Assembly: GCA_000934665.2 (NCBI GenBank)
Contig: KZ538519.1
Span: forward strand, 1 to 64,000
Direction of reading: 5' to 3'
DNA: 64,000 nt
From: Catajapyx aquilonaris
Lineage: Eukaryota
This document shows, in pieces, positions 3,001-61,700 of the stretch (position 1 is its first letter; each line of letters begins with the position of its first letter). The translations under genes were made by a program, and so were the position numbers. Under the pieces are notes generated by a model. The model had not been told where the DNA came from and did not search any database. It saw only the letters and a program-made list of their open reading frames with translations.

Positions 3001-5469
3001 TTGGTCAAGTTAATTCCAGGGGCCTCCTGCTAATTGCGAATTTTATTCTCCCTACTTCCACACACACACACACCTAGAAAACGGTCCAATGTCCTCGCAA
3101 ATGAATTCCGCACTGGAAAAGCACTTGGCCCAGGCTTCATTTTCTTTTAACTCCCAGCCCTCCGGCAAGCATAATTGCTCCGATATTATCATCAACGCTC
3201 TTCAGACAATCCTCTTTTTATTCCCAATTGGCACAACTATGCAAACAACCCCCTTTTTGTTTCCTTCTCTCTCTTTTTTTTTGTTAAACTGTGTGCGGTT
3301 TTGCATTTTGCGCTTCTATTTCCTCATAGTGCTGCTTCCATCGGGTGTGTTTTTCCCGAGTCCGATGCTGTGACGTCACGAGGCGCGCTCGGGGATTAGC
3401 CGCTTAATAGCGTTTGAAGTAGAGAAGATAAGCGCGTGTGGAAAACAAGGAGGTGGGGATGATGCCCCGGAGTGAGGCCAAATGGCGCGAGCGGGGATTT
3501 CTATGCAAATAGGCCGCGCACAAACATGATGGTGGCCAGCTACTGTTTGTTTTGCCCAAAGATCCACGCCAGGCCCGCCGTGTAAACTCTGCCCGACGGC
3601 GGATTTGGCGCTGCCATACCCACGGGCTTTTTTTTCCCCCTCTCCCCATTCCACCTCACCCCCCTACCATCCTCTCCGATCTAGTGTTTTTTTGCAACTC
3701 ACCTGCATCCTCACTGGGTTAAAAGCAGTGCGGAGACGGCAGGGTGCTCAGTGGTAAAAATGCTAAACGGGGTAGGAAAGTCAACAATGTGGGGGGGAAC
3801 TATCCAGCAGTGTTTTTCAGGTATTCGACAACATTACGTGCCACGTATTTTTACATCTGCCTCCAACCTATAAGCAACAAGAAAATGCAACATTGCATGT
3901 GCATGGATGCAGGAAAGCTCCCAGAAAAATTGCGCAAAAAAAATAGTGGCAAGCAGACACCAATTTTCAGGTTATTGTAGAAATTCCCCTTGTTCTCAGC
4001 AGATACATTTCTATTGATGACCAACCCGAATGGTGGTCACCCTGAGAAAATTGAGACCTGTAAAACCAGAATTTGAAGAAATCCCTATGCAAGCCCAGTA
4101 GAATCGTGAGTTTCGACGATAACCAAGGATATGCCCAATAATCCTTGAAGATTATAGAAGTATATCCACTACAGACTAGGCGGCGAAGGTTCAAGAGAAC
4201 TCAGTACACTCAACAATCGAGTTCATTAAATTCTCGAGTATATCATGTGCAAATTCATCATTTGGCAAGTGAAACATGTTGCTGCAAGCTGTTTTTTCAA
4301 TTATACGCAACTCTTTTAAAGGCTTCATTTTCAATACATTATGTCTTTGAGAAATAAGAGGCCAAAGGCACAACACTTCAATATTGTGAAAACTAAAACA
4401 TCAAAAGTATAGGCTGCCGAAGATTGTTATTCAAACCAATGCCCAAGAGAAAAATAGGCAGAACGTTGTGGTTAAGATAACAAAAGATTAGCAAACTTAT
4501 TTCCAGTTCTTGCCACGAGCAAGGTCTTGCGGCAAAGTTCAATCGCGATTGTTTAATTAACGTTCTGCTAAGACCATCACACTATATGTAGGCCAAGTAA
4601 GCATGACAAGCACCAATTTTGAAGCCAAGTACTACCTTGAAATTACGTGCGCAACAATAAAAAGAATTCTATGTTAGGACAACCCACACATAAGCATGAA
4701 AATCACCAATTTTCCATGAAGTTTTGTCGGGAATGGGCATGTCTTGGTGAATGCCTAAACATTTGAGAATATTTGCGAACCACAGTGTGTCAGCTTGTTG
4801 AATTTTTAAAAATCCACAAGGTGGACCATGGCCAGTAAACTATTTTAGAATTCCGGGGCTTGCTCCTTTTATTCTCTGTTTATTCTCCAGTGTTACAGCA
4901 CCCCCCAAAATGGCGCAGGGACATTGGGGCACTTGCTCGAAAGACAGCCATCTTTGGCCTCTCTCTCTCTCCCCCCTTTCCCACACTTCCCCTCGGCTTG
5001 TAAATTACTACTCCGCTGGCCCCCCGGCACGAGTCCCTTTTAATTATTTTACGATTCCCGAGCTCGGTCACCTCCTTGTCAATCCTGCCGAGCCACCATT
5101 CCAAACCCCCCCGCGTTGCACAATCTCCGAACCCAGGTTGCCGAATTGCACCTGTAAATAAATTGGCGATAAGAATAAATCACGGGGAGTGTGTGTTTCA
5201 CGAGTGTCACCATCGTGTTTAGGTATTCGTCTGGTTGAAACGGGTCTTTTTTTGCAAAACCGGAGCTGGGGGTCAATGCCAATGACTTGCCGTCGACTTT
5301 CAACCTTGTGCAGCTGCATCGCTGAGGGCAAAAGCGCTCCGGAATCAATTTCTTCTGGCTCGACTCTGCCTCGCCCACATTTGCATTTATACCTATCCCT
5401 TCTTCTTTTTTTTGGGTCATCTGGTGGTTGTCGCCTTTCGGTTCTGATATGCAATTGACAGATCGTGGT

Positions 5470-5506
5470 ACTCACCTGAAAGGAGAAAAAGAGGGTGTCG
5501 TTAGTG
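5470..5506 (-). other. Candidate recursive splice site (ratchet point) 2
   Basis: Minus strand CACTAAC-gacaccctctttttctcctttcag|GTGAGT: consensus branch point (5506-5500), polypyrimidine tract, AG at 5477-5476 and donor GT at 5475-5474. Confidence 0.7.
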
Positions 5507-6826
5507 GCTGTGACAGGTGCATATTATGACAGGTTTTTCTTTAGACAGGGAAAATAATCTGCACTTTATGAGACCCACATACGTATGGTTTCACGCACTC
5601 TAAAAACGATATGGCACATACACAGACCTCCCCAACTCCATATGACCTTCACAATGCCCACTGACCTACGAAAGCCATCATCCTTAAAAATCAGCCTGAA
5701 TTCCCCCTCCTTTATTGACACCACTTGTAAGTCGACGCCTGAGGCATGCATTTAAACTGTTTTCTTCTGGCGCCGGCTGAACACACCAGCTCTGCAGTTA
5801 GTATAGTAGCCGTACTGCTAAAGCTACCTTTTTTCTCTATCTTTCCACCCACCCCCCACCTTCCATCACCTCCTTTTCCAACCTTGGAAGCCCGGAGTTA
5901 AAAGGGAGTGGAATTTGGCGGCTCCCTCTGGGATCCGGAGACCTCCCCAAAAACCCTTCTTCCAGCTCTTAATTACAAACCTCCCGCCCCTCTTTAACCT
6001 GGTGAGCAATTTTCCCACAGGTAACCATATCCTTTAATCCCGGCTCCTTTTTCTCCCATTCCACTGCCTCAGGCCCACCTGCTACCTTTTCTACTCTCTC
6101 TAGCTCCAACCCTCCCCACCCCTCCACACACCCTTGCCTTGGGGAATTAGGCTTCCATCTTTGCCGCCAATTGATTACCAGATGGGAGGGAAGAGGATTT
6201 TGAGAGAGGAACCTGGAAATCCCTTAATCGCTTCTAAATCGATCTGTACGCCCTGAATACAAGGGGTTCACTCTACAAACCGGGATAACTAGGGATGTAC
6301 TTGCATATTATTAGTTAAAGGATTGCTTACTCGATAGGCACCATTGGTGTCCCTGCTGGACACAGGGTGGAATTTTCAGTTCCACTGCTATAGTTACTGA
6401 TGACTTAGAACTGGTAGAGCTAAGTTAGCAGATAGCAGATAGCAGTGGGACCTAAAAGACTGATTGGATTCACGTTGCCCTTGCTCAGGGACGGTAACAT
6501 TGTATATGAGCAAGGCAAAAGTGAAACCAGCGGGGGGATGTAACGGTACACTGGATGACTGTGGTACTAACTAGTCGCCAGCCATTCTGGCATCTGGTCC
6601 TCCTCCCACCCTAGTGTCAAACACAGGCTGCTCCACCTTGAACTGTTCTAGGCAATAAGCTGGCCCCTTAAAAGTCAGTAACCTTCTTAACGCAGTAGGG
6701 GGTTCTCTACGTGTTGGTGTTTTCTCAGGGCGTCCTAAAGTGCATACGTCGCTATTGATAAAAATAATGCTAGTGACTCCATCGTCTGGCCATTGAATCG
6801 TCCAGATGGTTTTCTGGAGAGATGCT

Positions 6827-7117
6827 CTCTCTAAAAAAATAAGAGTTAAATTAACTCTTTTAAACCTTGAAAGTGGTCATTACCAAAAATGAGTTATAAT
6901 AACTCTTTGCTGGAGTTCAAACAACTCTGTTAGTTCATTTCATCCTCCGAAAGAGTTAATGAATAACTCTTTCGGAGGATGAAATGAACTGAAAGAGTTG
7001 TTTTAACTCCAGCGAAAGAGTTATTATAACTCATTTTTGGTAATGACCACTTTCAAGGTTAAAAGAGTTAAAAAGAACCCAACTTGAGTTTTTTTAACTC
7101 TATTTTTTTTTAGAGAG
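6827..7117. mobile_element. Foldback/MITE-like non-autonomous DNA element, nearly palindromic along its whole length
   Basis: Ends CTCTCTAAAAAAA / TTTTTTTTAGAGAG. Arms pair through ccttgaaagtggtcattaccaaaaatgagttataataactcttt and its reverse complement to a centre near 6961. Internal AAGAGTT/AACTCTT subrepeats; possible 2-bp CT target duplication. Confidence 0.75.
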
Positions 7118-10100
7118 CTGAGACCATCGGTAGGTCACCCTTTAACGGTCGCTGTGGCAACATTGGGGTCCGGTGGGGCCAGTGTGGGAACAGGGCCTCC
7201 TCCACAAACCTCCTTCCCCATAAAAGCTCCGGCGCCTATATGGGTTCTGGTGCCTTCAAGGAAGATGGGGGAAGACGACCAAAAAAAATGGAAAAGGGGG
7301 GGCAAGGTGGCGTAGGGGAAGNCCCCCCCCATTCCCTCCGAAAAAAAAAACAGCTTTCATAAATTCCTGGTGTTTATCGCGAGAGGATTCCATGCTGTAT
7401 ACGCCACCGGGGAACCTGTTTCCGCCACGTTGCCAAGGTGGAACCGGATCGATTGTTGTCGCAACTGATTGGCACGCCTCTGTAATTATAGGCGGTTCAA
7501 AGGAAGAGACATGCCCGTGCCCCCCTCCTTCCTACCCCCCCTCTCGAAAAAATATCCGGGGTGGAAATGAACAACGGGGCTTAATTTTGGGAGAAGGGAA
7601 TCGGAGAAATATTGATGTTTCTATCGGTGGCTGGAGGTTGCAGGGAGGAAGAACCGAGAGGGGATGGGAGGGGGGAGGGGGGGCAGGAAAACTTTGGAGC
7701 AGTTTAGATAATGGCTGCGGTTCGTAGAACAGTGATTTCCGGGTAAACTTTAGGCAGTTTGCGGGCACAAGATATCGGAAACTATGCGAGACTATTTAAT
7801 GCCGCGAAACCGATTGTATATCTTAAAAACTGCTGGTATTGGGAGGGCGGTGGGAGGAAGTAAAAGTGAAATCGGATAAATTACAAGGGGGTATTGTAGG
7901 CCTACTGTGGTCCACGGGCAAGGGAAGGAGGAGGAGGAGGAATATAGGAAGGGGGCAGACACCTGGGGTAACCTTGGCCCCCCGCAACGGGGGGTGGGGG
8001 GTTGAAGGCAAGGGAGGGCCAGGGAGAAGGGCGCGAGGTTGCAACATCTGACTTCAAGAGACGTACCGTTCCAGAAATTCCGACTGTAGGTTGGGTACAA
8101 ATGACAAAAGGGACGTGGCTCATGCTCTATTGGGGACATGTCATCACTACTCAGAACCGCAAACTATTACACAAAAAAATGCGATGGAAACGAAAAAAGC
8201 AACATTACATTTTTTTAAAAATATAAATAATCATAATCGTTGACATTTTGTCACCGTGCATTCTGCGGACAACCTCAGCCGAATGACGGACAGCTTATCA
8301 TTGTTGCTCCTTATATGAACATCGCCGCTTCAATTGCACTGCTAAAGGACGGTAATTAAGGCTGCCAAAGTGGACTTAATGACTCAATCTGGCGCCGCTG
8401 TTTATAATGTCTACCCTGTTGATCAAACTGGTGTATCTAGGCATGTGGGAGGTGGTCAATCTGACTTGCTGATCACATTGAAACTAACCCTCCCCCGAAA
8501 TTGTTGGGCATATGCCGTCATTCCCGTATCGATCACTGTTCTGATGTAAATTCCCACGTCTCCTCAACTTTCTCCACCCAACCCAAACCCAACCCAACCT
8601 TTCCCCCCACCCCCTTTTCCCTCAGCCGAAATTTCCATGGCAAATGCAGGGCTTCAGGTCTTGGGTCGCCATCTCCATCTGCTCCCTATACTCCTTCCGC
8701 ATCAAACTTTGGCTTTCGCCGGTTGTGAAAATGTTCTTTTCAGAGTAGTGTATGTATACTGGAGGGTATTTTCAAAATTTGAAGTATATACCAGACGGTA
8801 TTGTCCAACAGAATGGAGCTAAGTGAATTTTGATAATGAATGCAACATATTCAGTTCACATATGCTCCTCTCCAGCATATGCTCCTAAGAATGCCTGGTA
8901 AGCAGCAGCCGTCTGGTGCAGGCTGCTATTTATAGGCATCTCGTCCCATCTTTTTTTTTTGCTGCCCATTCCATGCTTAATGTAGAAATCATTATGGGAT
9001 ATATAGTGAGAACAGGAATGGGCGCCCTGATGGTTTAGAGGTCAGTTCAAATCGTGACCGAGTTCCTGCAGGATTTTTCGAGGGAACCGTGGGAAACTTC
9101 CTCCCGCAGCCTTCATCTTTTTACGCCACCTCCTTAATCCCAGGTAAGGGTACACAGCACACAGGCTCTCTGGCATCATAATAATAAAGGCCCTCCGATT
9201 CGGCAAGCCCGCACGACTGACTGGCTGTGCTCGGGAGATGAGATGGGGGGAAAAACTAATTCATTAAAAAAAATGTATACACTAAAAGTATAATGCGACC
9301 GATTCCGCAGCCATGCAAAGTTGTGTGCGATCTGACCATTAAGAGAGGGGGGTACGGCCCAAGGTAAATCGATGACAGCTGCTGTATCATTGGGTATTAG
9401 CACCGAGCTAATCAATGCAGCCTACCATTTTCTCACATCTTGTAAGCCAGACACGCCATTTAAGAAATGCATAATGATCCAACATGAAAGGAACAGTAAT
9501 TCAGCCTATACGTTCTGCTTATTATAAAAAGCAGCATTGAAATAATTGCCAAATTTTCTGCAGGCATCGTTGGACCACTCTGTACCTGCCTCTCCATACG
9601 TTCAATGTGATGGTGATGATATAGGCGAGTGAGAAGGGGCTTAAAACCGGGGGCTTCAATGAGGTGGAATGAACCACCATTGTTGCGCGTACTACACTAC
9701 ATGATACTCGTGTGTCAACTGCTCTAACCACTTGCTGCTAACGATATTGGAGGACATTGGCACATCTAGGGTGTACTGTAGTACGTCCGGTGCTCCATCG
9801 AAAACGCAGCCGGTACATTACGTGAAGTACTGTCCTGAACGTGCTATACCATGATGGCGAAGTATCCCTCTTCTAGTACATCAGCGGCCTGTGAACGTTT
9901 TTTAACCCTCCATAAACGTAACGCTTCCCGTGCACTCTATTTAGTGATGATACTGCCGATAACCTGTCCGCATATCCTCGAATATATAGATGTAGGTTAA
10001 AAAAACATTTACATAAAACAAAAATGTCAAGTTGTCATGTTGATGTTATATGTCAGTCGCTTTGCCGCATTACAACTTGTCTCTCCCGCGGGTGCCTTTC

Positions 10101-13100
10101 ATTCGTCTCTGTTTCTCAGTACTTTGCTATACTATATAGTAGTACACATCAAAGGTATACAGCTCTCCACAATACGCTATACTGAAGCAGCGTACGCTCG
10201 GCAAATACGACCAAAGTCGATCCGAAAACAAGAATTTACGCTACAGCCCCCGGGGGCTTCAAAAATTGTTAGAGTGTTTCCTCGAGAATATGTGTCGCAA
10301 CCTGCTACTCACAGGTGCGGATTCCTGTTGGATTCAGTCCAACGAACCACTAGCTGGCACATAATGTAAACAACGGCAAGGCCAGTTACATAATTTTCTG
10401 CCAGCGAAAGGGTTGTGCTGCCAATGACCTGCCATCATTACCATACTCTTCTTCAAGGTCTTTTTTTCTCCGGCTTGGTACAGCAGCGACGTGATATTTT
10501 TCTCCGTACGTAGCTCCTGCGGCATCTCGCAAAAATATTCATATACTCGAGCTTGTATAGTGCTGCACAGTAAAATAAATTCGCATACACTCGAAAAATG
10601 TGGCTATATAGAAAAAAGGGCACGGCTTGGAACTAGGGTCAATGGCCACCGTTTTTCAATTTCACATTCAGTCTTCCTCCCCACCCCCTTTTTTTACCCT
10701 GGTATAACTCCCAAGCTTTTTATTAATTCGTTTGAAGTGTTTTGTTAATTTTCCGGCCAGGCATTGTGTACGTCTACGAGCCCAACAGGGCTTTCGCGCC
10801 GAGTATTGAAAATGCACGAGTTATTCCCGTACCTCCCTAGGTCCTTTATGCCCTCCTACTTACTGTATTTCCACTCCCGGTACAATTATCATTCTTGCAT
10901 GTAGAGTGGGCGGACTTTTGTACTTTTTTTTTTTTGTGAATGTGTACCCCAAGGGGAAACTGCCATTGTGCCTGCTCTTTACATACATTATGTGCGCTGA
11001 CTTGCTTACACGGTCATTTTCGACGGAATTGGCACCGAGACTTTGCACACACTGTACGGACAAAGCGAGCGAGAGGAGGAGGGGAGGTGGGGGGGGGGGG
11101 GGGGGCGAATCTNGGGGGAGTTAATTTTAACCAGAAAAAAAACCTTGCAGAACGGATATTGGCGCTCTTTTGTTCCTGTCATGCGTTATGCACGGGACCC
11201 GCAAAATTAAAATAAAAAAGTTATATTGCTTTCAAAGCAGGGTGTGTTTGACTCGGTGTCAATCACGCGATATCTGGAGTGCCACGAGTGGTAAGGTTGG
11301 TAAACACAATACGGCCTGTGCGCCTGAAGAATGACGTGCTAACCACACCCATCTCTACGTCACTGGTCGGCATAATATGCGGCGGGGCTTTTAACCAATC
11401 AAAACTGACCAGGGTGACGTCAGAGTCGTTCAGCTCGCCTTTTAACCAATCAGAGCATTTGTTCCTGAGGTTGATCCATAATCTCTTAGAAGGCCGAGAA
11501 TAAGATGGGAAAAAAAATAGTTCAGTGTACAATTATTTCAATTACAACATATTAAAACGTCCGGTGATATTTTTCTTTTAAATTAATTAGTCCAAGAGTC
11601 ACAAGAAGAAGGAAAGCTACATTCAGTCGTTAGGCTTGGCTTCCTTTTCGCATTCATTATAATCAAGCATGGAAAACGTCCACCCAGGGAAATACGATAA
11701 TTACCGAGAATTAAGTTGCGGCACTTGCACCTGCCTACCAGTCACCTTCTCTTCCTCTCTTATGCGTTGTTGAGTCCTTACAAACTGAATCTTTTCCCTC
11801 AATTTGGGTGCATACAACCATAGGCTTAAATTGCATCACTTGGTTAATATATGCATATTAGCCTACAATTTTGTTGAATATATGTCAGCAATGACCTTCC
11901 TCATCTTACGTCCACTCTTAACCCCCTGCAGGCAAATGAATAAAGTCGGTGAATGAAAAGAAGATCCTCTAAAAGGCCCAAGGAGGTCTATCACGGGGTA
12001 TTCATTATCATTATAAACCCCCTGCAAGATCCGTGACTCGTGACGCACCAGCTTCAACTATAGGCAATTATTATGCAAATCCGCAACATCCAGATCCAAC
12101 AAAAAATCTGACTCACTTTTCTGCACAAGCCTGTACCCGCACCTGTGCAACACCCACAGTTGTTGCGAAAAAAAAAAAATCAACGACCTCGCCATGCGTC
12201 GACCTTGCACCAAGGTTGCCAGCTCCATCAATGACTTTACTCTATTGTATATCCAACTATTTTTCACGGGTTTCCCTCCGCCAAAAAGAGTACACTAGCC
12301 CCAGTTTCAGTCTGCTTCCCCCCCCCCACCCTTCCCTATATACTCCCCATCACACCCCCGCCCTTTTTGCCGGCCCTCGGGGGACNTCCCTCTTTTCCTA
12401 ATGAAATAAATGCCGGCAGTGCGATGCTCAATACGCGCCGGGACGCTATATCCACTTTGTATGCTAACGATCGCTGTTGGAGCAAATCTCCTCGGGAAGA
12501 GAGAGACTATTGCGAGGGCTGCCACGGACAAATGCAAACTCTGCCCAGACGGGCCCCCCTTCGCAACCACACCAGGTCACAAACCTACCCCTGCTTCTGA
12601 TAGGGCTTTTACGCAAAAAAAAAGAGAGCCAGAGAGAGAGAGAGAGAGAGAGAGGTATCGATTCGCGAATTTCCTCTGATAGAAGCATCAACGCAGATCC
12701 GGGATAATAGCTGTTAAAAGTCATTTCAGAATAGGATCAGAAATTCGCCCGGATATGTAGATTACATCGAGCTCGCACCAGGACGATTTTCAACTCGTAT
12801 ATGATTAGGATATTCATCAATATATGTGCTTTTAATCACAAGCAGCAGCTTTTTTTTCACTCTTTCTCTATTTAAAATAGCGTCAAATTATATTGGAAGT
12901 AACTTTCCGTCGATTAGAGTATACCGCAGATATTTAAATAATCAAGTGGAAAAACTACTTCAGAATTGGACTCAATTGCTATACGAACAATTTTTTTTGT
13001 CAAAACCATCAGATGTACAGACACCTTAAAATGGACCAAAAATCAGGTGTTACAGTATACATTTACATAAAAAAATTATTGGAACTGCAAACTGTTTGGT

Positions 13101-16100
13101 GGCTGCACCCTCAGGACTTAAAATTTGTGCAACTTCCAGACTGCAAGTGTACGCACTTATTTTATGTATTTCCCCAAAGGGTAAGTGTAAATAGTTTAAA
13201 TGACACTGGGTTGTAAAATATCCCGGCAGGTACTCACTGTACACGCCCACATTTTCACATTTTATCTTGGGGAAAGGACGAGAGAAGGGCTGGCAACAAT
13301 ATGAATTAACCAACCCTCCGGGCCCGATTCCTGAAAAAGCATGAAGGCAGGCAGCAATGTGAATTAACAAACGGCCCTGGGCCAAAATAATCTGACCACT
13401 CCTCACATTCACGTGGCCCTGATAATCGATATATCGATCTCAAGTATTTCCAACTTCCACCCCTACAACGAACCCCCCCCCCCCCCTTAAGNAAAATTTT
13501 GTTAGTCAAAATAGTTTCCAGGCGCGGGTTGCAGCCTTCCGCATTTCCCAGACATTCATCTTCCACTCTTCGCCGAGTGAAACCAACACCTTGCTTGAAG
13601 ATAAGAGCGTTTACTTCAGATTACAATAGGGGAAGGGAGGTGGTTTAAGTGAGGAAGGGAAATTACGTACTCAGTTGTAGGAGCCAGGGAGCCAACGCAT
13701 GAGTCGCTTCACACAGGTCGCAACCAAGCGTAGGTACCTCCTTCTCCATTATCAGATGTCCGACACTATACCACGGAGCATATACCTATTCTATACCAAC
13801 CCTCTCCTATCTGCTGCTGCCTTGAAATTTATTGCCACGATGAAACGACGGGCCTTATTAAACTCGGCTGCCTTCAATAAACGCAGCCCTGATCTTAACG
13901 CTTTGGTGCCTTCAATGCACAGGGTTCTCAATTAATTTCGATAAAAGCAGGCCAGGTACACGACAAAATTTCTTATTCTTTTTAAATTATCACGTTAAGA
14001 GTCGTTCTGCGTGTACCCACTTGACGTCATAAGCAGCAGACATAATCAACACGATTTGCTACAATGTACTGTTGCCGAGCTCACTTCCGCGTGCATTGAT
14101 ATTCTGGATATGACTCGATGGTGAGATATTAAGTTAACTCAGGGTCGTATGCTAAACTACGACAAATTCCGCGCAATGTTTGTGACCAGCACGCGGTAAA
14201 CATATACCCACATAATATATCCGACCTTTATGCGACCATTCGCAACTGGCGTCACTTTTTCCCATTCGCCCCCTCTGATGCGGCGCCACATTCATAACTA
14301 TCCTGGACAAAAATGCTTATGTTGCAATAACAATAGAGTGGGCAGGGGGGTGGGGGAGCTATACGGCGACGATCGCATTTTTACAGCCGCCGACTATTTT
14401 TAACGTCCATATCATTAAACGGTCCTTATCTCCTTCGGATTCCACAGTTTGCAGGGTCATTAGTGTCCTATCGGGAGCATTTCACGGGCATCAAAATGGA
14501 AGCAAATAGCAGTAATATTATCATTAAGAGAATATCAACATGGGGCCCCTGGATGACGGCACTAAATCCTGGATACAGTTTTAGGGAAGGGCTGGGGAGG
14601 GGAGGGGGGGTTGGGTCCATCCCCAAAAGATTGGGTTGCAACTGGCCCACAAATCTCTCCCCCACCAAACACCCGGGTCCCCAGATGAAAAATTGCCAAT
14701 AGAGGCTCGCACAAACTTTTGCTACATGCGAAATGGTTTGCTGCATTCTGGAAAAACCAGCAGTTTTTGGCCCAAAAGGTCTAATTTCCACTGGACCAAA
14801 AATATGTTTGTCAGTAGCGAATCTATAGAGCTGTGCACTACCCCAGGAATGGGTGGGGACGAAGATTATACATGAACTAGTAGCGGACTCGTTGCCAAAT
14901 TTTAGCAACACCCCCCCCCCCTCCCTCCCCCACTTGGATGTAGCACGATAAGCCCCTACTATAGTTGACGCATAGGCTGTCCTTCTGCACACTACTGCCA
15001 CTCTCAGGGAGACGTGCACGTTGGTGATGAGTCACTGCAAGCGTTTTCGGTGACATAATTTGTTCAATTTTTTTTACACGTACAGTGCAGTGTAATGCAT
15101 CCTGCAGCCTCAGTCTGTTTAATAAAAAAGCAGGCAAACCCAATGCGAAAGGGGTGAGGCGAACCTAATGATGAATAGTGCAGGTACCCTCTTCCACCAG
15201 AGCTGGCGAAAACCGCTCGCAAATATGAAATGAGACTGTCCAATCCCATAAGTCAGAAGGGGCCCCATGATTTCACGCTTTGGCCGCCCGTGAAACCTTG
15301 TTTGCAACCCATTCTCGGGGCCGGGCGTTCGTCTTCTCCTTCCCTGTCACTACCTTTAATGTACGGGACACATTAATTAGGAGCCAGCAGCTGTTAACGC
15401 CGCCATGTTGAGAAAGAGATCCCCCTACCCCCCCACCGTACAGCAACCAGACCTTTTCCATTTTGCATTGCACGTCGACAAGAGCTGGTCTCCTATTGGC
15501 TCCGGAAGCCCGTGACGACATAACGGGCCTCCAATGGCAAAACTTTTCCATTTGGGGTTGCTACTCCTAACCGGATTATTCATCTCGGCATGCTAATATT
15601 TTCTGATTACCAGGAACTTCACCGTTTTAATTAAAACAGTAAAAACACATTGTGAACACTAGGAGGCTAATAGGGACCATAAATAGGCAGCCTCAGAGAC
15701 GTGAAAAGGCCATTAACATGTGCATTGCTGAAAATGCGCCGAAATTGGAGTTGGCGAGACAGAATTAAGGGGTGGGGAGGAGGGTAAGGGAGGTGGGCAG
15801 GGAGAATCTGCGAACAGACTCCTTCCATTATAAAATGCGGGGACCACTTTGGCCCGCGGCCTACACAAAAGGACGGACCGCTTTTCATAGTGGACCTGGC
15901 AAGATTATGACTGGTCAGAAGCAACCTCAAAGATTAGGGGCATGGGGGTCAGCTGGCCATCAAGATCCAGCTTCCTTCCTATATACGCGGTCGGGGGGGC
16001 CCCATACCGTTTAGCGTGCCTTATTACGCCGGCTTTTAGCCTACATGCAGGCCAGGTAATTGAACCTAAAGGCTCGCTAAACGCTGGATCCGACGTGTAC

Positions 16101-19100
16101 AATACGCTCTTATCAACATTAAAAAAAAAAATAGTACAAGACAGTGATGGATTTGTTTCTCCAATGACTGTACACATCGGGATCTACCAGTGGAAATGCG
16201 CATGCGCGAGTGAGCAATCGCCAGTCACGTTTTACCCTGGACGGATGGTAATGCATGGAACAATATCATAGGCTGATTTTTAAAAATTCGCACATTAATC
16301 AAAGCTCTATAGTCCGGCATTGTAACACTATAGAAAATATTTAAAAGCACGTTCACCCCGAACAACTGTCTATTAATAATGATGGAAATACTGCATATTT
16401 TATCCATCTGAATACATTCTCTCATTCATGCGCCTGAATTGATTGCCACTGATATTTCGAGATCTTTTTTTTGGCGTACAGTTTCTACACGCTCTCATGG
16501 CATACAATGTACAGTACAATGCAGTGAAATAAATCCGGCTGCTCTCCAGACGTCCATGTTTATGCAACATCTTCTGTGAAACTTTTTTCTCTCTCTATAT
16601 AAGCTCAATGTATTGGGCCATATACACCAGACATCGCACCCCAGTCATACTATTGTTATGCAAAGACCGTACAAGTGAATGTACAGCAGTGTAAGGCTCT
16701 CTCTGTGCACAGGAAAGCTTCACGTGTACTGCTGCGTCTCGTTACGCCGGGGTATATTACCTCGGCACAAATTGTCGTGACAGTGCACTGTTTTCGCTGA
16801 TTCACAGCGCAGCCCTATATAAGTGCAAGATTCTTGACACACCCTCGAGTATATGCACACGACAACGTGACAAAAAAAATCGGACCTAGTTTACAACACG
16901 AATTGGAACACCTCTCTCCCAAAAATGGTGAAAATTACACTGTTGGAATGGGAGGAGTCGTGGTGTTTCATAACGATTCAGACACACTTTTTAAGGCCAA
17001 CTCCTGAGCACCATCGGATACAGCCTATGACACTTCAATCATTGCCTTTGCACCTAATGAGCAGTATTAAAATAGCATGGTTCACGCTAGATTTAAAATA
17101 AAAATGGCAAGGACACACACCTGTCAGAATAAATATTTACATCTTGCATTGTTTCGGCTCCAGAGGACAAAAATGATAGAGTGATGCTCATAATTTCACC
17201 CAAAGTTTGTCTGAATCATTACGAACCACCCCATATAATGGATACAGCTCACGTGGGTCTGACCCCCACGGTTCCAATGAGCACTTTTTACGACGCACAC
17301 GTGGATCCGAAGTCAGCACGTAAAGGTTAGCACGGATGGTGCGCCCCAGTTCAGCAGTTTTTAAATGCTATCCCCCCCCCCCTTCTCCCCAGGCACCACC
17401 ATGCTTGAAGGCAGAATAAAAAGTAACCTCAGAGAAACTCAAGGATTCAACTGATCAAAAACAGTGATGCATAATATATAGTTTGGTATAATTTCCAGCT
17501 GCTGCGTGCGCCGCCCTTGTCAATAAGATCCTGTATTGAGCCTCGTTTTTTTTTTTCCTTTTCGTTGTTGTTATCCTGCGGTGGGGCGGCGCGTATATAT
17601 AAAACCCTGGAGGAACATTTGGTACGTCAAATATAATCCGCAGGTTTAGCAGGAATATTGGATATCCCCGGGTCTCCCATCGCAACTGGCAGCAACAATG
17701 CATGATTCATTATAGAGAGCCGGGGAAAAACAATGGGATGGGAAGAGGGAGGGAGAGCCCAAGGCCCTCTGGAGAGATGTGTCCCCTTGGAAAGAGAGGA
17801 AAAGAGGGCTTGTGCGGCCATAGAAGAGAGTGGAGGAGAGGGGGGGTTCCATTTTGTGCCCGAATTATGAGAGCAGACCGCGCTTTTGGTCTCGCAGCCG
17901 TTGATGAGGAAGTGGAAAAATCAAGTTTCCTCTCAAAGCTAATTGACAAATGGTCCCATTCTCATTACAAGGGAAATGTGAAGTGAAACTTCATTTTCAT
18001 ATGAATTAGTTCCTTAGGACTTCAAAGGAAAGACGCTTGATGCAATTAGTCGGGTTGGGGGCCATGAGGAGGTGCAGGCCTTTACCGAGCACTAAGACTA
18101 ACAGAGGGATGTTAATTGGCGTATCCTGACAGGTGGGGCTGGGTCCCGCCAGAAGAACAGGAAGATTCTAATTCATTTAACCCAATACTGAATCAATTGC
18201 CCGGAAGAGAAAAGAGGTTCAGTCCGTGCTCTGGTTCCGCTCCAAACCCCTTTTCTGCCCTGGCGACGACGAGCATCAGCTTGCTGTGTGCCCCATGCCT
18301 GCCTACCCAGCTTTGCTCCTCTATTATTCAACCCCATGCATTCAGCCAGACTCTGCCTCGCAAAATCTGAATCGTTTTCCCGTCTGATTAGGGTTTTGAG
18401 TTCCCCCCAAAAAATTGCCTAGAGAAGCGGCAAGGGCTGCCAGGTTATAGCCCGACAGAAGGTGATAAAAATTTCGCTGAATCGGGTATTCCCAGTAGCG
18501 TTGTCTTCCGCATGCAACCAAACGTATGCAAGACCACCCCTATAGTATAAAGAGAGGCCTTAATTTATTTTTTTTGTACCGCGATTGTCTGGGTACAACA
18601 GTCGCCAGCTGTGTTCCCCCAAGACGGATGACAATGGCAAGTCACGGCAGCAATTGAGCATGACCGAACCCTTCTCCGCATCATGTCTGACAACGCACCT
18701 GCTGTCCTCGCGACCTACCCGACTTTGGGGACATGCCCGTACTATTAGCGGCCAGCAGCTCAAACCCTTGAGTGCCCAGGACACGACGGAAGATTCGACC
18801 GCAGCCACCTCCCCCAAGATGGCGATCGCCCCCAGATGTCCCAACCTTTTCTCGGGGAAAACGTCCATCTGTCGGGGCACAGGGTTCCTCAAAGAGCAGA
18901 TATCCACCTGGAGATACCCCTGCGTGAAAGCGAGGGTTTCCGGTGCACCTGTCCTTCCTAAGGCAACCACTGCTGCTGCAGGCGGCACGGGTAATGCACA
19001 TGGCTGCCTTCTCAGTGCCCCGCCATCTTTGTGCCCAACCGACAAAAAATATATAAAAAATGCTAAGGGATGGCTAGACAGCCAGGGTAATTCAGGTGGC

Positions 19101-22100
19101 CAGTGGCCAGCAGCCAGGTTCTGAGGAAAATTAGTTTCTGGAAGCGGGGGAGAAGCCCTGAATTGCCAAGAGCACTGGGTCGGAGATGCGCTTTTCAGGT
19201 CAAGCTTTTGTCAGAATACCAATCCTCTGTCAGGGGTCAGGTCGGACAAGGCCACACCAGCTAATAAATCCGAAGGAGATTCACAAAACAGGCATGTGAA
19301 CACCCATGGCACAAATCGCTGAGAACATGCAACCGAAGTGGCTCCATTGTTCGGCCGGGTAGTATATTCCTCAGGGGCTATAAATTTCTCGGTCGGTGGC
19401 AGTGATGTTCGGCATTCACCCCCGGTTTAATTACACAATTTCCACGCGTATGTCTCCCGTTATAAAACGACTAGTGCCTTTCCCGATACGGTTAATTATT
19501 TTCCCCAAGTCGAGCCAATTTCATCTTCGCTCGCCCCTTGGCACGACAAATAAGGGCTTGATAGGGAAATTTTCCCAGGGAACATGAAATGGCATTAACT
19601 CTTGCATGAGTTGGCCTTGAGACTTGACCAGCAGGCTTCTTCTGCATGGTTGGCGACTCTCGCAGGGGGCTTCGGGGCACTCTGCTGGGGCACAAAATAG
19701 AGTAGATGACGCCCAAGACGCTGTTGGGTTGAGGGAACGAGGGGGTTGGTGTGAGAGCTCCAGGGGGAATATTGCTGCCAACCGCAATAACTAATCTCAC
19801 CTTTATTGATTTCCTCTTACTGCAGAAATTGCTAAAAGCGCCATGTTTTCACGCCGAGCTGCTCGCATTAGAGCTTGCTCGGAAGCCTTACCTCGCGCAC
19901 TCTGATTGGCCAAGGTTAATTGAGGAAGTGACGCGAACCGTGATGCTAAAAGTTGCCGCCTAAGCCCTCCCGAAAGCGTCAACTTTTCATTCTTTTTTTA
20001 ACTTTTATTATAATTAACATTTCTTGTACGGACTATAGGTGACGATGATTGCTTATATACAACAATTGTCTTCACGAAGAGCATGCGCTAATTTGACCAT
20101 ACACATCTTATCGAATGCGATGAATTATTCATGCCGCCCAAAAAAAACGGCCGTTTTTGTGCAACTGCAATCAAGCAATTAGGTTATCTACTACACGCTG
20201 GATAAACGCCGCATGAAAGTAGCCCCTCCCAAAAAATTCACGGGCTGATACCACCTCTTTTTGTTTAAATTCCTGAAACGTTGTAGCAGCTTTTAACAAC
20301 GTCCGGTTTCTTCAAACTTGCGCATCAAAAAGGTTACTGATATATATAGTAGCGTGTATCAGCGGCTGAAATCACCCAGCACTTCCAACATGAGGTGCTG
20401 CAAGTACTCTCTGCACATTATCCCACGCGTCCAATCCCAATTATTGGACACGAGCTGCCGATTCCATCCCCCTGCTGTATATGCGTCACCTCCATGTGTC
20501 ATGTGGGGAGGGAAGCTTCCAATGTGTTCATCTAATCCTAATGGACCCCCCTGGCTGCTGGGCTGGGCAGTGAAGCTCCGAGAGGATGAGGAAGGAGTAT
20601 ATATAGGAGGCCGAACCCTGTGCAAACTATTGCCCCAACGGATATTGGGTGTATTATGGCGAAACTGACACCCATTCTCGCTTTCCTGGGCGCTAGATTT
20701 CAGGAAATAGTAGCCCCTCACTCACCCCCTACTCGAACTGATTGTGTTACTATATCACTGTGATTGAGAGTGACGCCATGCATGCTCTTATGATGTTTAG
20801 GTACCAAAAAGGATCGCATTTGGCTCCCGGACAGGCGTCACTATATGAGGGACGTGCATGGCTGGCAGCATCCACGCTACATGTGGCGTCCACTTAATCT
20901 CTGCGATGACGCCATGAGCGACGCCTCGGCATCAAAGTAATGGGACTAATTTAAGAATTAGTCGATACGCCAAATGAAGCCCCTCTCTTCCCCCGCCTTG
21001 GGTACAAAAGGCTTGTGCTTTTCCCCTCCCAACTCCCTCTAGTGCTATAGTGTATATAGCAGCAGCATCTCTTGGGGCAACAGCTGCGGCCAAGTGCCGT
21101 TCGGACCATTCGTCCATTCGGTCCCGTCCAGGAGATTCAATTAAAATCTCTATTCTAATGAAGGGACGCCAAGTTAGTTAAGCGGATGGAATAATGATAA
21201 TGATCACCGGCACATCCGAGCAGAGCCCTGGCCTTTTAAGCAACGGCGCCGTTGTCACCTCCCCAGCTAATTACCAATCAGTCGAGGTACACGTCTCCCT
21301 CAAAATACTTGGGGGCTAGTTATCTCTGCTAATTACATCCCCAAATGCTACGTCTTGCTAGGGAAAAGGTCGAGCCAGCAACATGTATATCTCTCCCCGC
21401 GGCCTGTCCTCTCTCGCCTCGCCTGGTCGCCTATGATTGGCTCAACCCCCTCAAGGCCACGGAAACAGGTGGAGCCACGCAGGTGACGTCAATCATTACC
21501 ATTGGTTCGGACACGATTTGTGCTAATTACCCGCACAGGTCGCGAAGAAATGACGATTTGTCAGATTTGTGCCCGTTGTACTACGCAAATGATGCTAAAA
21601 TATCCACTCATACGATCAGCTTGGGTACAGTGGTGGAAATTAAATGGATATCAACATGTATCGCCGCCTGGCGTGGTGGTGGGGGCTTGCGTTTCTCCCG
21701 CGACCCCAAGAGCTATGCCGGCGGTAGCTTCGTCTATTGGCAAGTCGGACAGGTCTTTGGTATAGGAGACAGATTACAGATTGTCTTTCCTCGGTTCTCT
21801 TTTATTACTTTTCATTTCTGTCTCCGTCTGTCTCACCTTTGTGTCTACTAATAGCCAGATAGCCATAGTTGCTTTGGATCCTTCCTATAATCAACCTAAA
21901 ACCTTGCGGAGATTTTCCTCTACAATGCCTACATGAAGCGGCATCATGTACAAAGGAAAAGCTCCGCCAGGCGGTGATACATGTGGATATCCATTAATTT
22001 CCACCATTGTATATATGCAAATTAAGGTAAATATCCGGGCATCGAATTAATTGGCGCACCTGGACCACTTACACGGCCACAATCGTGCCTAGAACATTCC

Positions 22101-25100
22101 GGTACGGCCCAACTCGTCCTCATTGTCTTTCAGCGGCGGGAATGTCACGTCTGACACCCACCGAATGGTGAATCGCGGTTAGTGACGTCACTATAAAGAT
22201 CCGGGGGGGATCCGGGCTATAGAGGGGAGAGAAAAGTACTGTGGGCGTGTTTTCAGCTAGGCAAATATAGAGACCAGGGGGGGAGACCGAAGAGAGGGAA
22301 GGTTTCCTAATATTTTCCATCCGTTTCTTAATCCGGACCAGAGCAGCGTGGATGTGTGTAGATGATTATGCGACGTCAGATCCACGGCTCTGGGAGTGCG
22401 GGTTGTGCTGTATTGATTATGAGATTTGGGGCGTGTTTGCCGTTGTAATTCCTGCAATAATGAGGGAGGGTGGGAGAAGGATGGGAGAAGGATGGATAGA
22501 AAGAGGAGGGTGCAGTGTGGAAGGGGGGGGGGGGTAAAAGAGGATCTCATTGCCAGAGCTGGCCACAGATCGCTTCCGGCGTCTCTGCTCTTCTCTTCCT
22601 TCGCACTTTGCAGCCGGCGTGCGGCTCTAATTAGGCCTCGCCATGTGCCACATCGCCAGCAAAATAGTGCCGCCCAAATTATCCCGCTGGGATGCCTATT
22701 GTCTCGCAAGCACAAACCGGCGGGCTTCTCCCTTACTTTTTTTTGCCAGCCTAAATGGCCACTTTTTTGGAGGAGGCAGAGAGAGAGAAAAAAAAAGTGG
22801 GGGAACTTCCTCCCAGCTTGCTAAATGTCGGATTTTTGCTTCGCGAAATCTGACCGCAAAAAAATAATTCGTGTAGGTTCGCGTGACTCGGGGCCTTGCC
22901 TTGTGTTACATCGGCATACGGGGTGTAACCCGTCCCTCCGCCAGGTGCTTATTAATTGTGCAAGCAGACATTGCTAGATACCCTGGTGTTGTGCTAAATA
23001 TGCATGCAATCAGTGTAATGCGCCACAGATGGGGGGCGTAATAGATTTAAACCACCGTAGACTTATAGCCTGCCTCACTTACTATCCGAGTAAGGCACGT
23101 GTTAATCTCCCCAGTAAATGAGGGCGACACACTTAACTGATATGCACACTATGCGGACTAATGCAGAGTAGGAGAATGCTTTCAAACTGATTTAAAACAC
23201 TAACACTAGATTGATGTTACTGCAGCTCGGGGCGTATCAGTTAATGCCTCGACAATGCTACACTATATTGAAACATACTGTTTACTGAAGTCATCCTGTG
23301 GTTGAAATTTTCTGAAGCCTCCACATCCCATGCACGGCTTCCATCGGCTTGAGTCATCTTCAATCGAATTTTTCATAAAATATATCTTACTGCATAGCAA
23401 TTTGGGATGTGGTTTTGTCAAGGAGAGAAACACATGTCCCCAGAGCACACAATAGGTGCAGATAGATAGGGTCTTGTCACATAAGAGTCTACACAGCATT
23501 GGAGCCATGTCATCATCATAAGGGGGGAAAACCTGGCAACGTCCGCAATTGACAGACATGCGGGCTGCCCAGAAGAGGCGCGTGGTTCACATACCTCGCA
23601 GGATGAACATGGTATCACAGGAGAAAAGGCTGGATTTTTGATGGCTGGTCCGTCGACATTCGAAACCAGCAGCGTCCTGTTCCAGCAGACACACCGGGCA
23701 TAATCACATTTACAGGCAGATCGTTTTTCATTCCGGTTGCGATATACAGCAGCCTTCGATGCCCTCTTGTTTGGAATCGGCTCGGTAACAATGCAGAAAT
23801 GTGCTGGCTGCTCCGGATAAGTGGGGGAGAGGTGGGAGGGGGGCTATCATGTTGCTCCATTCCAACTGACATTGCCAAGAACGGGTATGGCATGCATGGC
23901 TTTTCGTCCGTTATTGTGTAATGAGTTAATGGCATGTAATTCGACCGTGAGAGGGTGCCCCAGTTAAATGAATATCCGGATACCCTTACAACCGAACACC
24001 CGGATTAGCCAATCTCCGGGCACCCGGATATCAGGGTGTCATTACTCGTGTAGTCCGATTAATTCTCGGGGAAATTCAAATGCCCTCAGCGCCAGGTAAG
24101 GTTTCGCGTTGCAGCAACGGCCGATTCATCAAATCCCATCCAGCGCAACAAGCTATAATTTCAACTAAGTACGGACACACCGGTATATTATTCATGCCCT
24201 ATCCGCAGATTGGACTGAAGATTTTCTCACATTATACGCATGTATTTCAGGTCAACTCTTGTGTCAAAATGCACACTTGAGGACTGCTGCGACAAAAAGC
24301 ATCCCGATACCTGTCAATTATATAGGTTGTGGCTGATTCCTGGCTCCAAATCCTCCCAGTGAGACTATTATTTCCGGATCCATCTCTGTCCGCAGAGTTT
24401 CAGCGACCAACGGCATTGCTGTACGACCGTATCCTCTCAGATATCCGGGAATGGTATATAGGGGGTGGAGAGAGAGAGATGTGGAGTAGACGAGGAAAAG
24501 CGCTTCCCTCCCACTGCCCAACATTTGTCATTTAAGGAATGTACATATAACTTTTTGAAGGCATGCCAGCGTTCAGAATTACATTTCTGAATCCATTCCG
24601 TGATGCCGCTACAACCCCGCACTGGAATGGACACAATTTAGCATGCTCTTTGCAGTAAATTCTTCTCCAAATTCCGGGCCGGAGGAAACACTCCTGTTTC
24701 GGGGAGTAGGGGGGTAAAAGCCTCAGCCTCGGAGATTAAATGAAGGCATTTGTTCCATTGGGCCGGGCCTTCTCGTCTCAGAAAACACCCAGCATTTAAT
24801 ATGTATGGGACGCCTTGTAAATAATGGAGGTTAATTTGACGTTCTTGTTTTAGCCTCAACTCTTAACTGCATGCCTCCCCGTCAGCTAATTTCCTGGAAC
24901 AAGCTGCACGGGGAGGGAGGCTGTTCCCTCCTTCCCTTTTCCTCCCCCACCTCCTTTTTCCCCTCCACCCCCTACTGCATAAAGGAGCCTTTCTTGGGTG
25001 CTGCCAAAACCATGGAAGAAAACTGAATATTGCACGCTGGTGCAGCCCGCATTGATGCACACAAGACCTGTGCACGGTGCTGCTGGAGAAAGATTGATCG

Positions 25101-26813
25101 AGCAAACTTTCTTGCTGGAAACACCGCGCCTAGAGAGAGAGAGACACACACAGAAACATGCCAATGAAAACTGCAGAAGGCGAAATTAAGCAATTAAGAC
25201 ATATGAATTTAGAAAGAAAACTGGCAATGCAGGCAATAGACCTGCTAAAATATCTCACATAGTACGTGGATCCAGCCACAGTTTCAGAAGCAATACATAA
25301 TTACATTATTCCAAATGTGAGCCTGCTGGTAATCATACTTAAAAGTGCGAATAATTAATTCCAGAATGGGCCAGAATGGAATTTGTATAATCCAAGCGTT
25401 TAGCCAGAATTCAAGAAATAGTTGCCCCCTTTCATTATTATCATCAGTCTAATATTATTTCGGATTAGTATCCTGCCAATGCCACTGTACCATCCAGAGT
25501 TGCAACTTCTACATCACTATTTTGGAATGCAAAACTGTATGGTCTGTATAGCACAGGTCGGTGGCACTGGCAGAATGCAATCGAAAAAAGAGCCCGTCCT
25601 CTGTAATATTTGGCTGATACTGTATATAGGATATTCCCAGAATGTGCGATCTGAACGGACCATGGAATTTTCAAGATAACTTTGATCTATTCAAGATTTT
25701 GGCTCGAATTCAAGGAATGTTCGTACTTCCTCGACTATACAGGCCGTGAAGTTCAAATTACAATGTCCACAATTTCCTCTTAAACTACTTTTGACCCGTG
25801 TAAACGCAGCGGCATCGGGAGACAAAAGGAGCCACCTTTTTTTTTTGTCAATACCCGGTATATGCCCGCACGCAATAATTGAACTCTTGAGATGCCCATT
25901 TATTACCAAGCTTGTCTTCCGTCAGCAGGGAGTTGCCTACGGGTCATTTTGCAAACACGCTTTCACCCACTTGAACGGAAAAGGTGCCATATGGCGGCAG
26001 GCCAGACACCAGCAAAAAAAATTTTTTTTCGCAAAAAATAATTGAGTGTAGGTCCACAACATGCTGCTTCCAAGAAGAGAAGCCGAAACAAAGGAGCTTG
26101 GTTGCTACACTTGCTCGTTTTGATTCCTGGAAATCGTACGGATAAGTGCATGTGAGATGCACGTTATCCCTCATTCCTTTTGTTCCGGCCGCGCTTCTGT
26201 ATTTATCAGACGGGAATCTCGCACATCGTTTGATCTTCCTTCCTTTTTTTTTTTGCACAAAAAAAATCCAACAAGAAGCGGAGGCGGGATTAATCCAGAC
26301 CACAATGGCACTTGTGGAAAACGTGCATTGTTTACTCGAAGCGGAGGAAACTGCCGGGGTGCCATTTAAAATGTGATGGTCAACGAACACGCCCATGGAA
26401 AAATATAAGTGTGTCATCTCTTTGCGTCAGAAAGATAAATTGATTATTATCAAATATTTTTGTTGCTAACTCGTATTTTATATCTGGGGTACGGCCAGGA
26501 GATGTGAAAATAATTTGGACTTTGGGCTATCCAGTGGGGTGTGTAAAAGGAGTGAACAGTGTGCAGGCCGAAATATATATATGGGGAAGGGAAGATGGGG
26601 GCTTTCGCTTCCACCTGGATGGTTTTCCTTCGGCCCCCAGACGACCGGACACCACACAAACGAACTCGTCTGGCATGATTCGATTTGCATACGCCCAGTC
26701 TGCCCAAGTAGAAGCCTCTCTTCCCTTCCCTGAATGCTGATTTCGATGCTACACTTACCGTCTTTCACCACACACCATCCACTTCCATACAAAAAAAACG
26801 GACCAGGAGAGGG

Positions 26814-26845
26814 ACTTACCTGGAAAGAGAGAGAAAAAAAGAGTT
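26814..26845 (-). other. Candidate recursive splice site (ratchet point) 1
   Basis: Minus strand ...aaactctttttttctctctctttccag|GTAAGT: long polypyrimidine tract and CAG (AG at 26821-26820) immediately followed by a perfect donor (GT at 26819-26818). Confidence 0.7.
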
Positions 26846-29318
26846 TGTCACACAAAAGGCATTGATCACAATCGCAGGGTTGACCTTCTCAGAACAATGA
26901 TCGCTAACCCCATATGCTCAAGGTTGGGGAGGCTTTGCAAGCTCTGGCCGAGGGAAAATTTTCCAAGGTGGCAAAACTTTTCGGGGTCCCACCTTTTCTT
27001 ACCTTATTTTGAACGCGTGCATAATTCTAGGATCGGTCGCCCAATTGTCCACCACAAAAAAATTAAAAGGAAAGGAGGGGGGGAACAAAGGAGCCTTGAA
27101 CAAACCCCCTCACACGGAATAGCTCCGGCCCCTTACCCCATCCCAAAAAATGCAATCCACAATCCCGCCCCGCCACTTTTTCCATAGAAATAATATTTAA
27201 AAAAAGAAACTTTACATACCCACAGTTGGGCGTGCTGTTGTCAGCTTGTGATCCAGCATGAGAACGCGCATATTCACCATTTTTTTACCCAAAATCTGGC
27301 GGAAATACCTGCGCATATTTTTACCATTAATAATTGAATAGTTCAGTGCACCTCGACGGGAAAGTCACCAGCCTTACATTTTATTTTCAAGTGTTAACGC
27401 CTCGATACAGCTGTCAGCACTGCCAGCATTTTTATTAAGTGAAACGCACTCGTACGAATCGACGCGACCTTTTCCCACACTTGAGGAAAAACTGCTACGA
27501 TTTGCAACAATGTGCGAGTGAAATTGGAGGGGCCACTCCTAAAAGTGGAGTAGGCAGAAGATGAGGGGTGCAACGACTAAATGCTCGTGGGAACCTCAAA
27601 CACGACGTGAAGTCATAGAAGATAAAACAGTATTCACCTACAAGGGGGCGATTAATTATTATTTGCAAGGTCTGCGTACTGTTATTGAAGTACCAGGAGT
27701 TTGTCAAGTTGATCCAGATGTACATTTGTTGCCAGTTTTCTCTGTATCATTTTGCAGTTTTTGGCATGAAGCTTTTTTGGGGGGAAAATTCTCGGACAAC
27801 ATTGCGCATACAATTTCGGTCCGCAATCTACAGCTGAATTCAAAAATGTTGCACAGTAACCGCTCGTGCTTTTCACTTTCTCCTGGCACTATTCTGGCTC
27901 AAATGCGATCTCATCAGCCTCCTGATTATGACTGCCTTTATATATAGAGAGCTAGGCTTTAAACTTTAGCAATATCCTGTTAATAATCCCCGAGAGATGA
28001 TGACACGGATAAGCAAAATCCCAGCCTCTCTCTCTATAGTTTTCCTCCCAATTCGGACGCACATCCTTGGCAGTGCATCCGCCGCAATTTCGGACGCACC
28101 CTGCGTGTTTATAACGTGCCCAAAAATGCAGTGAACCTTTCCCTCAGGAGCCAGCTAGGTCTCTTGTTTCCCTTGGCTTGTCTCAGCTGGCGGCAAGTCG
28201 AAGGAAGGTCAGGGATGGATGGGGAGAGCCCACTCGGTGTTGCCACGTGTGTGACAAAGGGTGTTACGTCCGAAAGTATGTTGCTGGAGTCAACACTTCC
28301 CCCAAAATGTTGCTAAATCCTTCGTATATGTGAGAATGTGCCTAGTAGAAATGTGCTGTTGGAGCATTTTTCTTTTTTTTTCGACCCGAAATTTTTTGTT
28401 CTTCCTTCTGAGCGTGGACAAGAGCCCGTTTATACAAAAGCTGGGGGTAGCAGTTGTGCCTGGGCATTTCTGGGAAAATGGAGATGCCTGGACACGATCT
28501 GCGGTGTCCCCTCGGCAAAGAGAGGAGGGTGGGCCTCAGCTAGAAAAGAGCAGGCGGCCGCAGGAGCAGTTTCTTGTTCCCTTTTCACAGAGGTAGCTTC
28601 CCTCCCAGGCAGAAAAGCAGTTACCCAGAAAAAGGGGACGTGGAATGCTTCTCCTATACGATTGTTCCCCATCCCCCACCCCCTACCTTCTCTTCTCTCT
28701 CTCTCTCTCGCCATTTTTCCCTCCCTCCTCCATTTTCTGGAGGGCTTCATTTGCTGCTACCCCCGATGGCATTTGTCCATCCCTGGAAATAAGGGTGAGG
28801 GGGAAAAAAAAGAACAAGCCTGGCTAAATGAACGGGCAACCCTCACCAGAAAATTTTTCGTTCAAACTCAGCACAAATCTGGATCGTCTCAGCCAAATTG
28901 CGATATTCATGAAATTGGCAATCCCTTTATTTTTAAAAACCACACCATTCCGTCTAAACCTTGAACCGAAATAATTTAATACGAATGTTGATTGTTGTGT
29001 GTGATCAGGAGCTGTATATAGCTCGATTTTTCATTTAATATGTCCCTTTGCTCCACATACTATTGGGGTGCGTTCTTTGTTTTACTTTTTTTTTAAAAAA
29101 AAATCGTTTGAAAGCGGCACGAAGGAAAAATGTGTTTACGACCTGGTAATTAGTCGCACCGCGTCGAGGAACAATGAGCATGCAAGCAATTCGCACGATG
29201 CACATTGATTGCACACGACTGATGATGGGAACAGCGTGCAAACAGGCTCGACTCTTGACGCTGATAAGCCAGAGGTTTTTGAGCTGGTGTGCGAAGGAAC
29301 GTCACTCAAAAGCTGCGG

Positions 29319-29355
<37 letters not shown>

Positions 29356-33354: not shown

Positions 33355-33446
33355 CAGGGTGACCCTAAGGTCTGGACACATTGGTTCACAATTGGTATCC
33401 TGGCAACCAACAATACAATATGTGTCCAGATTTTAGTGTCACCCTG
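33355..33446. mobile_element. 92-bp Tc1/mariner-type MITE
   Basis: TA|CAGGGTGAC-CCTAAGG-TCTGGACACA ... TGTGTCCAGA-TTTTAGT-GTCACCCTG|TA: imperfect ~27-bp TIRs and TA target duplication. Confidence 0.7.
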
Positions 33447-34136: not shown

Positions 34137-34158
34137 NNNNNNNNNNNNNNNNNNNNNN
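34137..34158. other. Assembly gap (22 N)
   Basis: Run of n characters; single Ns also occur in several G/C homopolymers. Confidence 0.99.

Positions 34159-57511: not shown

Positions 57512-61700
<4,189 letters not shown>

Follow-up and report, generated by a model that had tools for sequence, protein, structure and literature searches.

The closest described counterparts of the sites discussed here are the intronic ratchet points of Drosophila, at which the consensus (Y)nNCAG|GTRAGT places a strong acceptor directly against a donor; the motif lies in the sense orientation within a very long first coding intron, and the donor is regenerated when the upstream exon is joined to it. According to PMC6110457, recursive introns of the fly are long and enriched among first introns, their segments typically measure about 9-15 kb, recursive acceptors surpass ordinary 3' splice sites in strength, and strong donors are enriched downstream of these sites. 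PMC8605326 adds a short, usually out-of-frame cryptic exon (about 50 nt) that ends at a donor further downstream and that is recognised first and then skipped as the regenerated donor wins. We examined a 64,000-nt stretch of Catajapyx aquilonaris DNA (contig KZ538519.1, positions 1 to 64,000; hereafter the window), in which two composite acceptor-donor sites had been noticed on the minus strand within a very long intron of a ZSWIM4/5/6-like gene. Both sites are probably Drosophila-type intronic ratchet points that are used recursively, a reading to which we give a probability of roughly 0.7.

Such motifs have been counted outside flies before. A 2009 survey found (y)nncag|gtaagt in excess on the sense strand of introns longer than 50 kb, with densities per 100 kb (sense strand first, then antisense) of 2.2 and 0.10 in the fruit fly, 1.0 and 0 in mosquito, 0.48 and 0.12 in bee, 0.81 and 0.10 in beetle, and 0.54 and 0.07 in sea urchin (PMC2773006, Table 2). 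The sense excess over antisense in these five was 4 to more than 20 times, whereas motifs of the ratchet-point type are not sense-enriched in vertebrates, where the ratios are about 1 to 1.5 (PMC2773006). Vertebrate genomes also hold few fully silent intronic recursive sites, as stated in PMC8605326. In the locust, a recursive site was predicted in the NPF1 gene and supported by U2AF65 binding (PMC8892266), and a paper on bee ELAV brings up recursive splicing solely in ruling it out for a 3-nt exon. Our search took in the arthropod, Apis mellifera and Tribolium literature, with most subscription journals outside its scope, and within it no RNA-level catalogue of recursive sites outside flies was found; the literature outside flies that it returned consists of computational surveys and the one locust gene tested by protein binding. 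Since sense-strand enrichment in several insects and the sea urchin had already been published (PMC2773006), the novelty of the present pair is less than the original prediction supposed.

The two sites lie where they had been placed, and both are on the minus strand, as we confirmed by reading the sequence at 26820/26819 and 5476/5475. Site 1 reads ...ctctttttttctctctctttccag|GTAAGT, with its junction at 26820|26819 and a tract in which all 18 positions are pyrimidines before CAG|GTAAGT. Site 2 reads ...ccactaacgacaccctctttttctcctttcag|GTGAGT, with its junction at 5476|5475, a tract of 17/18 pyrimidines and CAG|GTGAGT. The 58 nt upstream of the acceptor AG of site 1 are free of AG; at site 2 another AG first appears 32 nt upstream of the acceptor's own, beyond the branch site. 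By comparison, the pyrimidine count over the same 18 positions is only 11-14 for the six acceptors inferred in RPB5, the neighbouring gene, and therefore sites 1 and 2 are markedly stronger acceptors than those of nearby ordinary exons.

Joining exon 1, which ends in ...GTCG, to the two sites would regenerate the donors TCG|GTAAGT at site 1 and TCG|GTGAGT at site 2, in agreement with the original prediction, and the donor regenerated at site 2 is identical to that of exon 1 itself over the first 8 intron bases. The intron would thereby be cut into the pieces that had been calculated (26,956 nt, 21,344 nt and more than 5.4 kb); the arithmetic is right, and at least 5,475 nt remain for the last of them. 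Thus the locus has the juxtaposition of AG and GT together with the tract and GTRAGT, the position on the sense strand of a very long intron, and, as predicted from sequence, the regenerated donor that mark a ratchet point.

The host gene is identified by its first coding exon, whose translation has 55-82% identity to the ZSWIM4/5/6 proteins from insects, crustaceans, chelicerates and fishes; among the matches listed from the protein collection (120 per listing), the top identity is 83%, so that none of these is a transcript-derived fragment from the same species. This exon ends in ...CAAGTCG|GTGAGT at junction 53776|53775. The motif spanning the boundary is present in 16/17 full-length relatives, all 16 of which run VLQV|GFHLSG...SFDRCKITSVTCSC exactly across the end of exon 1, and was not found in the remaining one. 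We looked for exon 2 in two ways. A tblastn search with 11 relatives over the 64-kb window returned exon 1 alone at E < 0.01, and a search for seven short peptide motifs in the six frames of the window gave four chance matches to HLSG and none to the longer motifs. Because no later ZSWIM exon was found in the window, the intron is longer than 53,775 nt and runs past the left end of the window.

This intron had been described as the first intron of the gene, a term that we would narrow. Upstream of the ATG, at about 54637..54435 on the minus strand, a donor-like CTG|GTGAGA and an acceptor-like ...ctcgctgcag|G form a candidate small 5' untranslated region (UTR) intron. Since such an intron may exist, "first coding intron" is the safer name, and if the 5' UTR intron is true the long intron would be the second of the transcript.

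We then asked how often sites of this kind would arise by chance. Over all 64,000 bases, the octamer AGGTRAGT has three copies on the minus strand and none on the plus strand, a count that is by itself close to the two or so per strand expected at random. What departs from expectation is its pairing with a pyrimidine tract. The two strands together hold 417 AGGT, of which 5 are preceded by at least 15/18 pyrimidines, 3 continue to the full GTRAGT, and 2 have both (Fisher p = 3.4e-4). Likewise, 12 acceptor-like sites on the minus strand have at least 17/18 pyrimidines followed by NAG, and GTRAGT comes next in two of them, where 0.006 would be expected (Poisson P for two or more, 1.7e-5); when the tract is relaxed to at least 15/18, GTRAGT comes next in two of 52 sites (expected 0.025, P about 3e-4). 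On the plus strand, GTRAGT follows none of the acceptor-like sites at either threshold (n = 7 and n = 49, respectively). We also generated random 64-kb sequences, matched in composition to the minus strand, in 300 runs each at Markov orders 1 and 3. No run at either order produced two sites (0/300 each); at order 1, 297 runs had none and 3 had one, and at order 3 the figures were 295 and 5. The pairing of tract and donor is not chance.

The original prediction had described the two sites as the only strong examples on their strand, and this holds when at least 14/18 pyrimidines and at least three of four donor positions are required. Within the window there is no equally strong antisense motif, the count being two on the sense strand and none on the antisense strand. 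The third minus-strand AG|GTGAGT (AGGTGAGT, at 3702-3703) was considered as a recursive site and rejected, its tract having only 8/18 pyrimidines.

Donor-like hexamers were also counted separately in the intron (positions 1-53775). GTGAGT occurs 16 times on the sense strand, the exon 1 donor included, and 3 times on the antisense strand (binomial p = 0.004), in sense copies that are scattered and are not repeats. The corresponding counts are 8 and 5 for GTAAGT, and 29 and 32 for AATAAA. The GTGAGT excess may mean that U1-type sites are enriched on the strand that is transcribed, or it may come from the small numbers.

The original prediction missed a candidate cryptic exon of 61 nt that follows site 1 and has its own GTAAGT donor. 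Its length is not divisible by three, and its donor is the best within 260 nt. The short out-of-frame cryptic exon with a downstream donor that accompanies fly ratchet points, there about 50 nt long, thus has a candidate counterpart at site 1, and the ratchet-point reading gains support from it. It has no such counterpart at site 2, where no donor scoring above 4/7 was found within 260 nt downstream; judged by eye, a TAG|GTATAA at 83 nt scores 3/7, and the unit that it would close has an in-frame TGA.

Compared with the ratchet points of Drosophila, then, the two sites have the same consensus, strand, position in a very long first coding intron, strong acceptor and regenerated donor, and site 1 has in addition a candidate short out-of-frame exon and its downstream donor. 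They differ in that the host is not a fly, the best protein matches being to various insects and other arthropods, in that site 2 lacks a clear cryptic-exon donor, and in that the present pair is predicted from sequence. The exon-definition unit at site 1, in which a recursive acceptor pairs with a donor further downstream and two donors compete, also resembles the recursive-splicing exons (RS-exons) of vertebrates, as cited in PMC8605326 and PMC6110457; the motif here, in contrast, is a strong consensus of the insect type. In density, two sites in 53.8 kb fall in the range of the fly, the sense-strand figures of the invertebrate survey being 0.5 to 2.2 per 100 kb across its species (PMC2773006), although the scoring rules differ. 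That survey and the locust NPF1 study (PMC8892266) concern the same consensus in long introns outside Drosophila, but the former gives genome-wide counts and the latter treats another gene.

The original prediction went from the recursive signature to the operation of recursive splicing in this gene. The signature stands, and it is strand-specific, beyond chance and Drosophila-like in its anatomy. Use of the sites by the spliceosome, and the order of that use, are best taken as a credible and well-founded prediction, which would make the locus a new example of a known mechanism. On this prediction, transcription of the intron of more than 53.8 kb would be followed by recognition of the very strong acceptor at 26820, for which exon definition, with the GTAAGT donor 61 nt further on as partner, is the probable route. 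Exon 1 would then be joined to 26819, with removal of 26,956 nt and re-creation of TCG|GTAAGT. The re-created donor would compete with that of the 61-nt cryptic exon and be spliced to the acceptor at 5476, removing 21,344 nt and re-creating TCG|GTGAGT, and this last donor would in turn be joined either to exon 2 or to another site outside the window. Removal of the intron would therefore be piecewise (26,956 nt, 21,344 nt and more than 5,475 nt), with no trace of the intermediate steps kept in the final mRNA. In principle the middle piece could leave first, since a composite CAG|GTGAGT would also be re-created if the donor at 26819 were spliced directly to the acceptor at 5476. However, fly data in PMC6110457 favour removal of segments in 5' to 3' order.

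Several points weigh against recursive use of the two sites. The predicted segments, at 27 and 21 kb, exceed the 9-15 kb typical of the fly. The locust, which has a large genome, is reported to have a low, vertebrate-like ratio of such sites (PMC3896762). Every statistic given above is drawn from one 64-kb window. Site 2 fits exon definition worse than site 1, as no good donor was found within 260 nt downstream of it. Finally, the donor that closes the cryptic exon at site 1 is a GTAAGT and equals the ratchet donor in closeness to the consensus, and for this reason skipping of the exon is not clearly favoured and some inclusion of the 61 nt, as a poison exon, is possible.

Such inclusion is the core of one alternative, in which the sites serve as acceptors for alternative or poison exons that are expressed; the unit at 26819..26759, for example, would enter some mRNAs, shift the frame and lead to nonsense-mediated decay. 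A strong acceptor, a strong donor (6/7) and a length that is not a multiple of three would all suit a poison exon, as would the identity of the competing donors, both GTAAGT, given that donor competition decides between inclusion and skipping (PMC8605326). However, this explanation overlaps the recursive one, because any exon that starts with GTAAGT can be re-spliced after ligation, and it leaves site 2 without a good exon-closing donor. Moreover, a plain cassette exon needs no full donor consensus in its first six bases, and the occurrence of one at both sites is not chance. We therefore regard expressed exons as an unlikely explanation of the pair. It is also quite improbable that the sites bind U2AF or U1 and are left unspliced, whether as decoys that delay removal of the intron or as U1 sites that suppress premature polyadenylation. 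The sense excess of GTGAGT (16 against 3, the exon 1 donor being among the 16; p = 0.004) hints at a general excess of U1-type sites, but such an excess requires no adjoining acceptor, and near-perfect 18-nt tracts, a branch site and an AG-free zone characterise an acceptor that is used. The polyadenylation signal AATAAA, for its part, has no strand bias (29 against 32).

The sites could also be relics of some other transcription unit on the same strand, or of a mobile element, with no relation to ZSWIM splicing. The intron is large and unannotated here and holds odd fragments such as the weak ZSWIM-like stretch at 33243..33091, which might seem to invite such an origin. However, the 601-nt flanks of sites 1 and 2 are single-copy in the window and mutually dissimilar, from which it follows that the motifs were not brought in by one repeat family; no Rfam family was found at threshold anywhere in the window; and a zero-length AG|GT junction is no exon of anything. 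We consider a relic origin very improbable. As to a fortuitous meeting of a CT-rich tract with a donor-like hexamer, the raw material for it exists (at 15/18 or more, 49 plus-strand and 52 minus-strand acceptor-like sites), but with 0.006 to 0.025 such meetings expected per strand against the two observed, and none of the 300 simulations at each order yielding a pair, it is hardly credible. Ratchet points in recursive use thus remain the explanation that we prefer for both sites.

A bolder extension of the ratchet-point reading would make site 1 a regulated switch, a recursive poison exon at which the choice of donor sets the amount of productive ZSWIM mRNA, or would make the two-site layout an old one, conserved in the ZSWIM4/5/6 genes of arthropods outside flies. 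We hold this extension to be doubtful. In seven related metagenome loci (L001-L007; 57-80% protein identity), no ratchet-type motif was found 3' of exon 1 in the up to about 4.2 kb of intron that they cover. This result is uninformative on conservation, since sites 1 and 2 are 27 and 48 kb from exon 1, far beyond the roughly 4.2 kb that the loci reach.

The coordinates of the features are collected in Table 1.

Table 1. Positions of the two predicted ratchet points and of associated features in the 64,000-nt window
Feature	Position	Strand	Length	Details and basis
Ratchet point 1 (predicted)	26814..26848	minus		Candidate branch A at 26844 or 26848; 18/18 pyrimidines; CAG|GTAAGT
Ratchet point 2 (predicted)	5470..5504	minus		CTAAC branch site, A at 5501, 26 nt before junction; 17/18 pyrimidines; CAG|GTGAGT
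First recursive segment (predicted)	26820..53775	minus	26,956 nt	From coordinates (53775-26820+1); no ZSWIM exon found within
Second recursive segment (predicted)	5476..26819	minus	21,344 nt	From coordinates (26819-5476+1)
Start of third segment (predicted)	1..5475	minus	at least 5,475 nt	Runs off window end; exon 2 not found in window
Candidate cryptic recursive exon	26759..26819	minus	61 nt	Frame shift +1; no in-frame stop when read from exon 1
Downstream donor ACG|GTAAGT	26753..26758	minus		GT at 26758; 6/7 consensus positions, best within 260 nt
First coding exon, ZSWIM4/5/6-like gene	53776..54235	minus		ATG at 54235; 153 codons + 1 base, phase 1 end; from translation and relatives
Long-intron donor TCG|GTGAGT	53770..53775	minus		From sequence; tblastn alignments of several relatives end at 53774-53777

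Two further observations concern the ZSWIM gene. The ZSWIM-like stretch at 33243..33091 on the minus strand was considered as an exon and rejected as too diverged, with 35% identity (18/52 residues). It was matched by one of the 11 queries, at a window-level E of 0.039, and its target is a conserved stretch of fish ZSWIM6 (residues about 459-509); it may be a decayed fragment or a chance match. In many arthropod assemblies, exon 1 is annotated as a short stand-alone protein that reads into the intron (P0009, P0015, P0251, P0255, P0274, P0291 and others), which suggests that a very long intron at this place is widespread and often breaks gene models.

Upstream of the ZSWIM gene and on the same strand lies a gene for the RNA polymerase subunit RPB5 (57515-61700, minus strand). 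One of its exons, encoding residues about 165-190, is tandemly doubled (58266-58189 and 58128-58051); the best match of copy 1 is a cockroach isoform and that of copy 2 a planthopper isoform, and the tandem exons look like a mutually exclusive pair. Over the aligned parts, the RPB5 product is about 90% identical to each of its counterparts in stick insect, true bug and horseshoe crab. Both protein-coding genes of the window are best matched by arthropods, RPB5 being too conserved to tell the group.

If confirmed, the ZSWIM intron would offer a clean and experimentally tractable pair of recursive sites in an arthropod other than Drosophila, for which RNA-level evidence is sparse in the literature covered here, and site 1 would become a test case for competition between two consensus donors. 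The understanding of recursive splicing itself would be unchanged; rather, a known mechanism would be extended to one more gene and, probably, to one more lineage.

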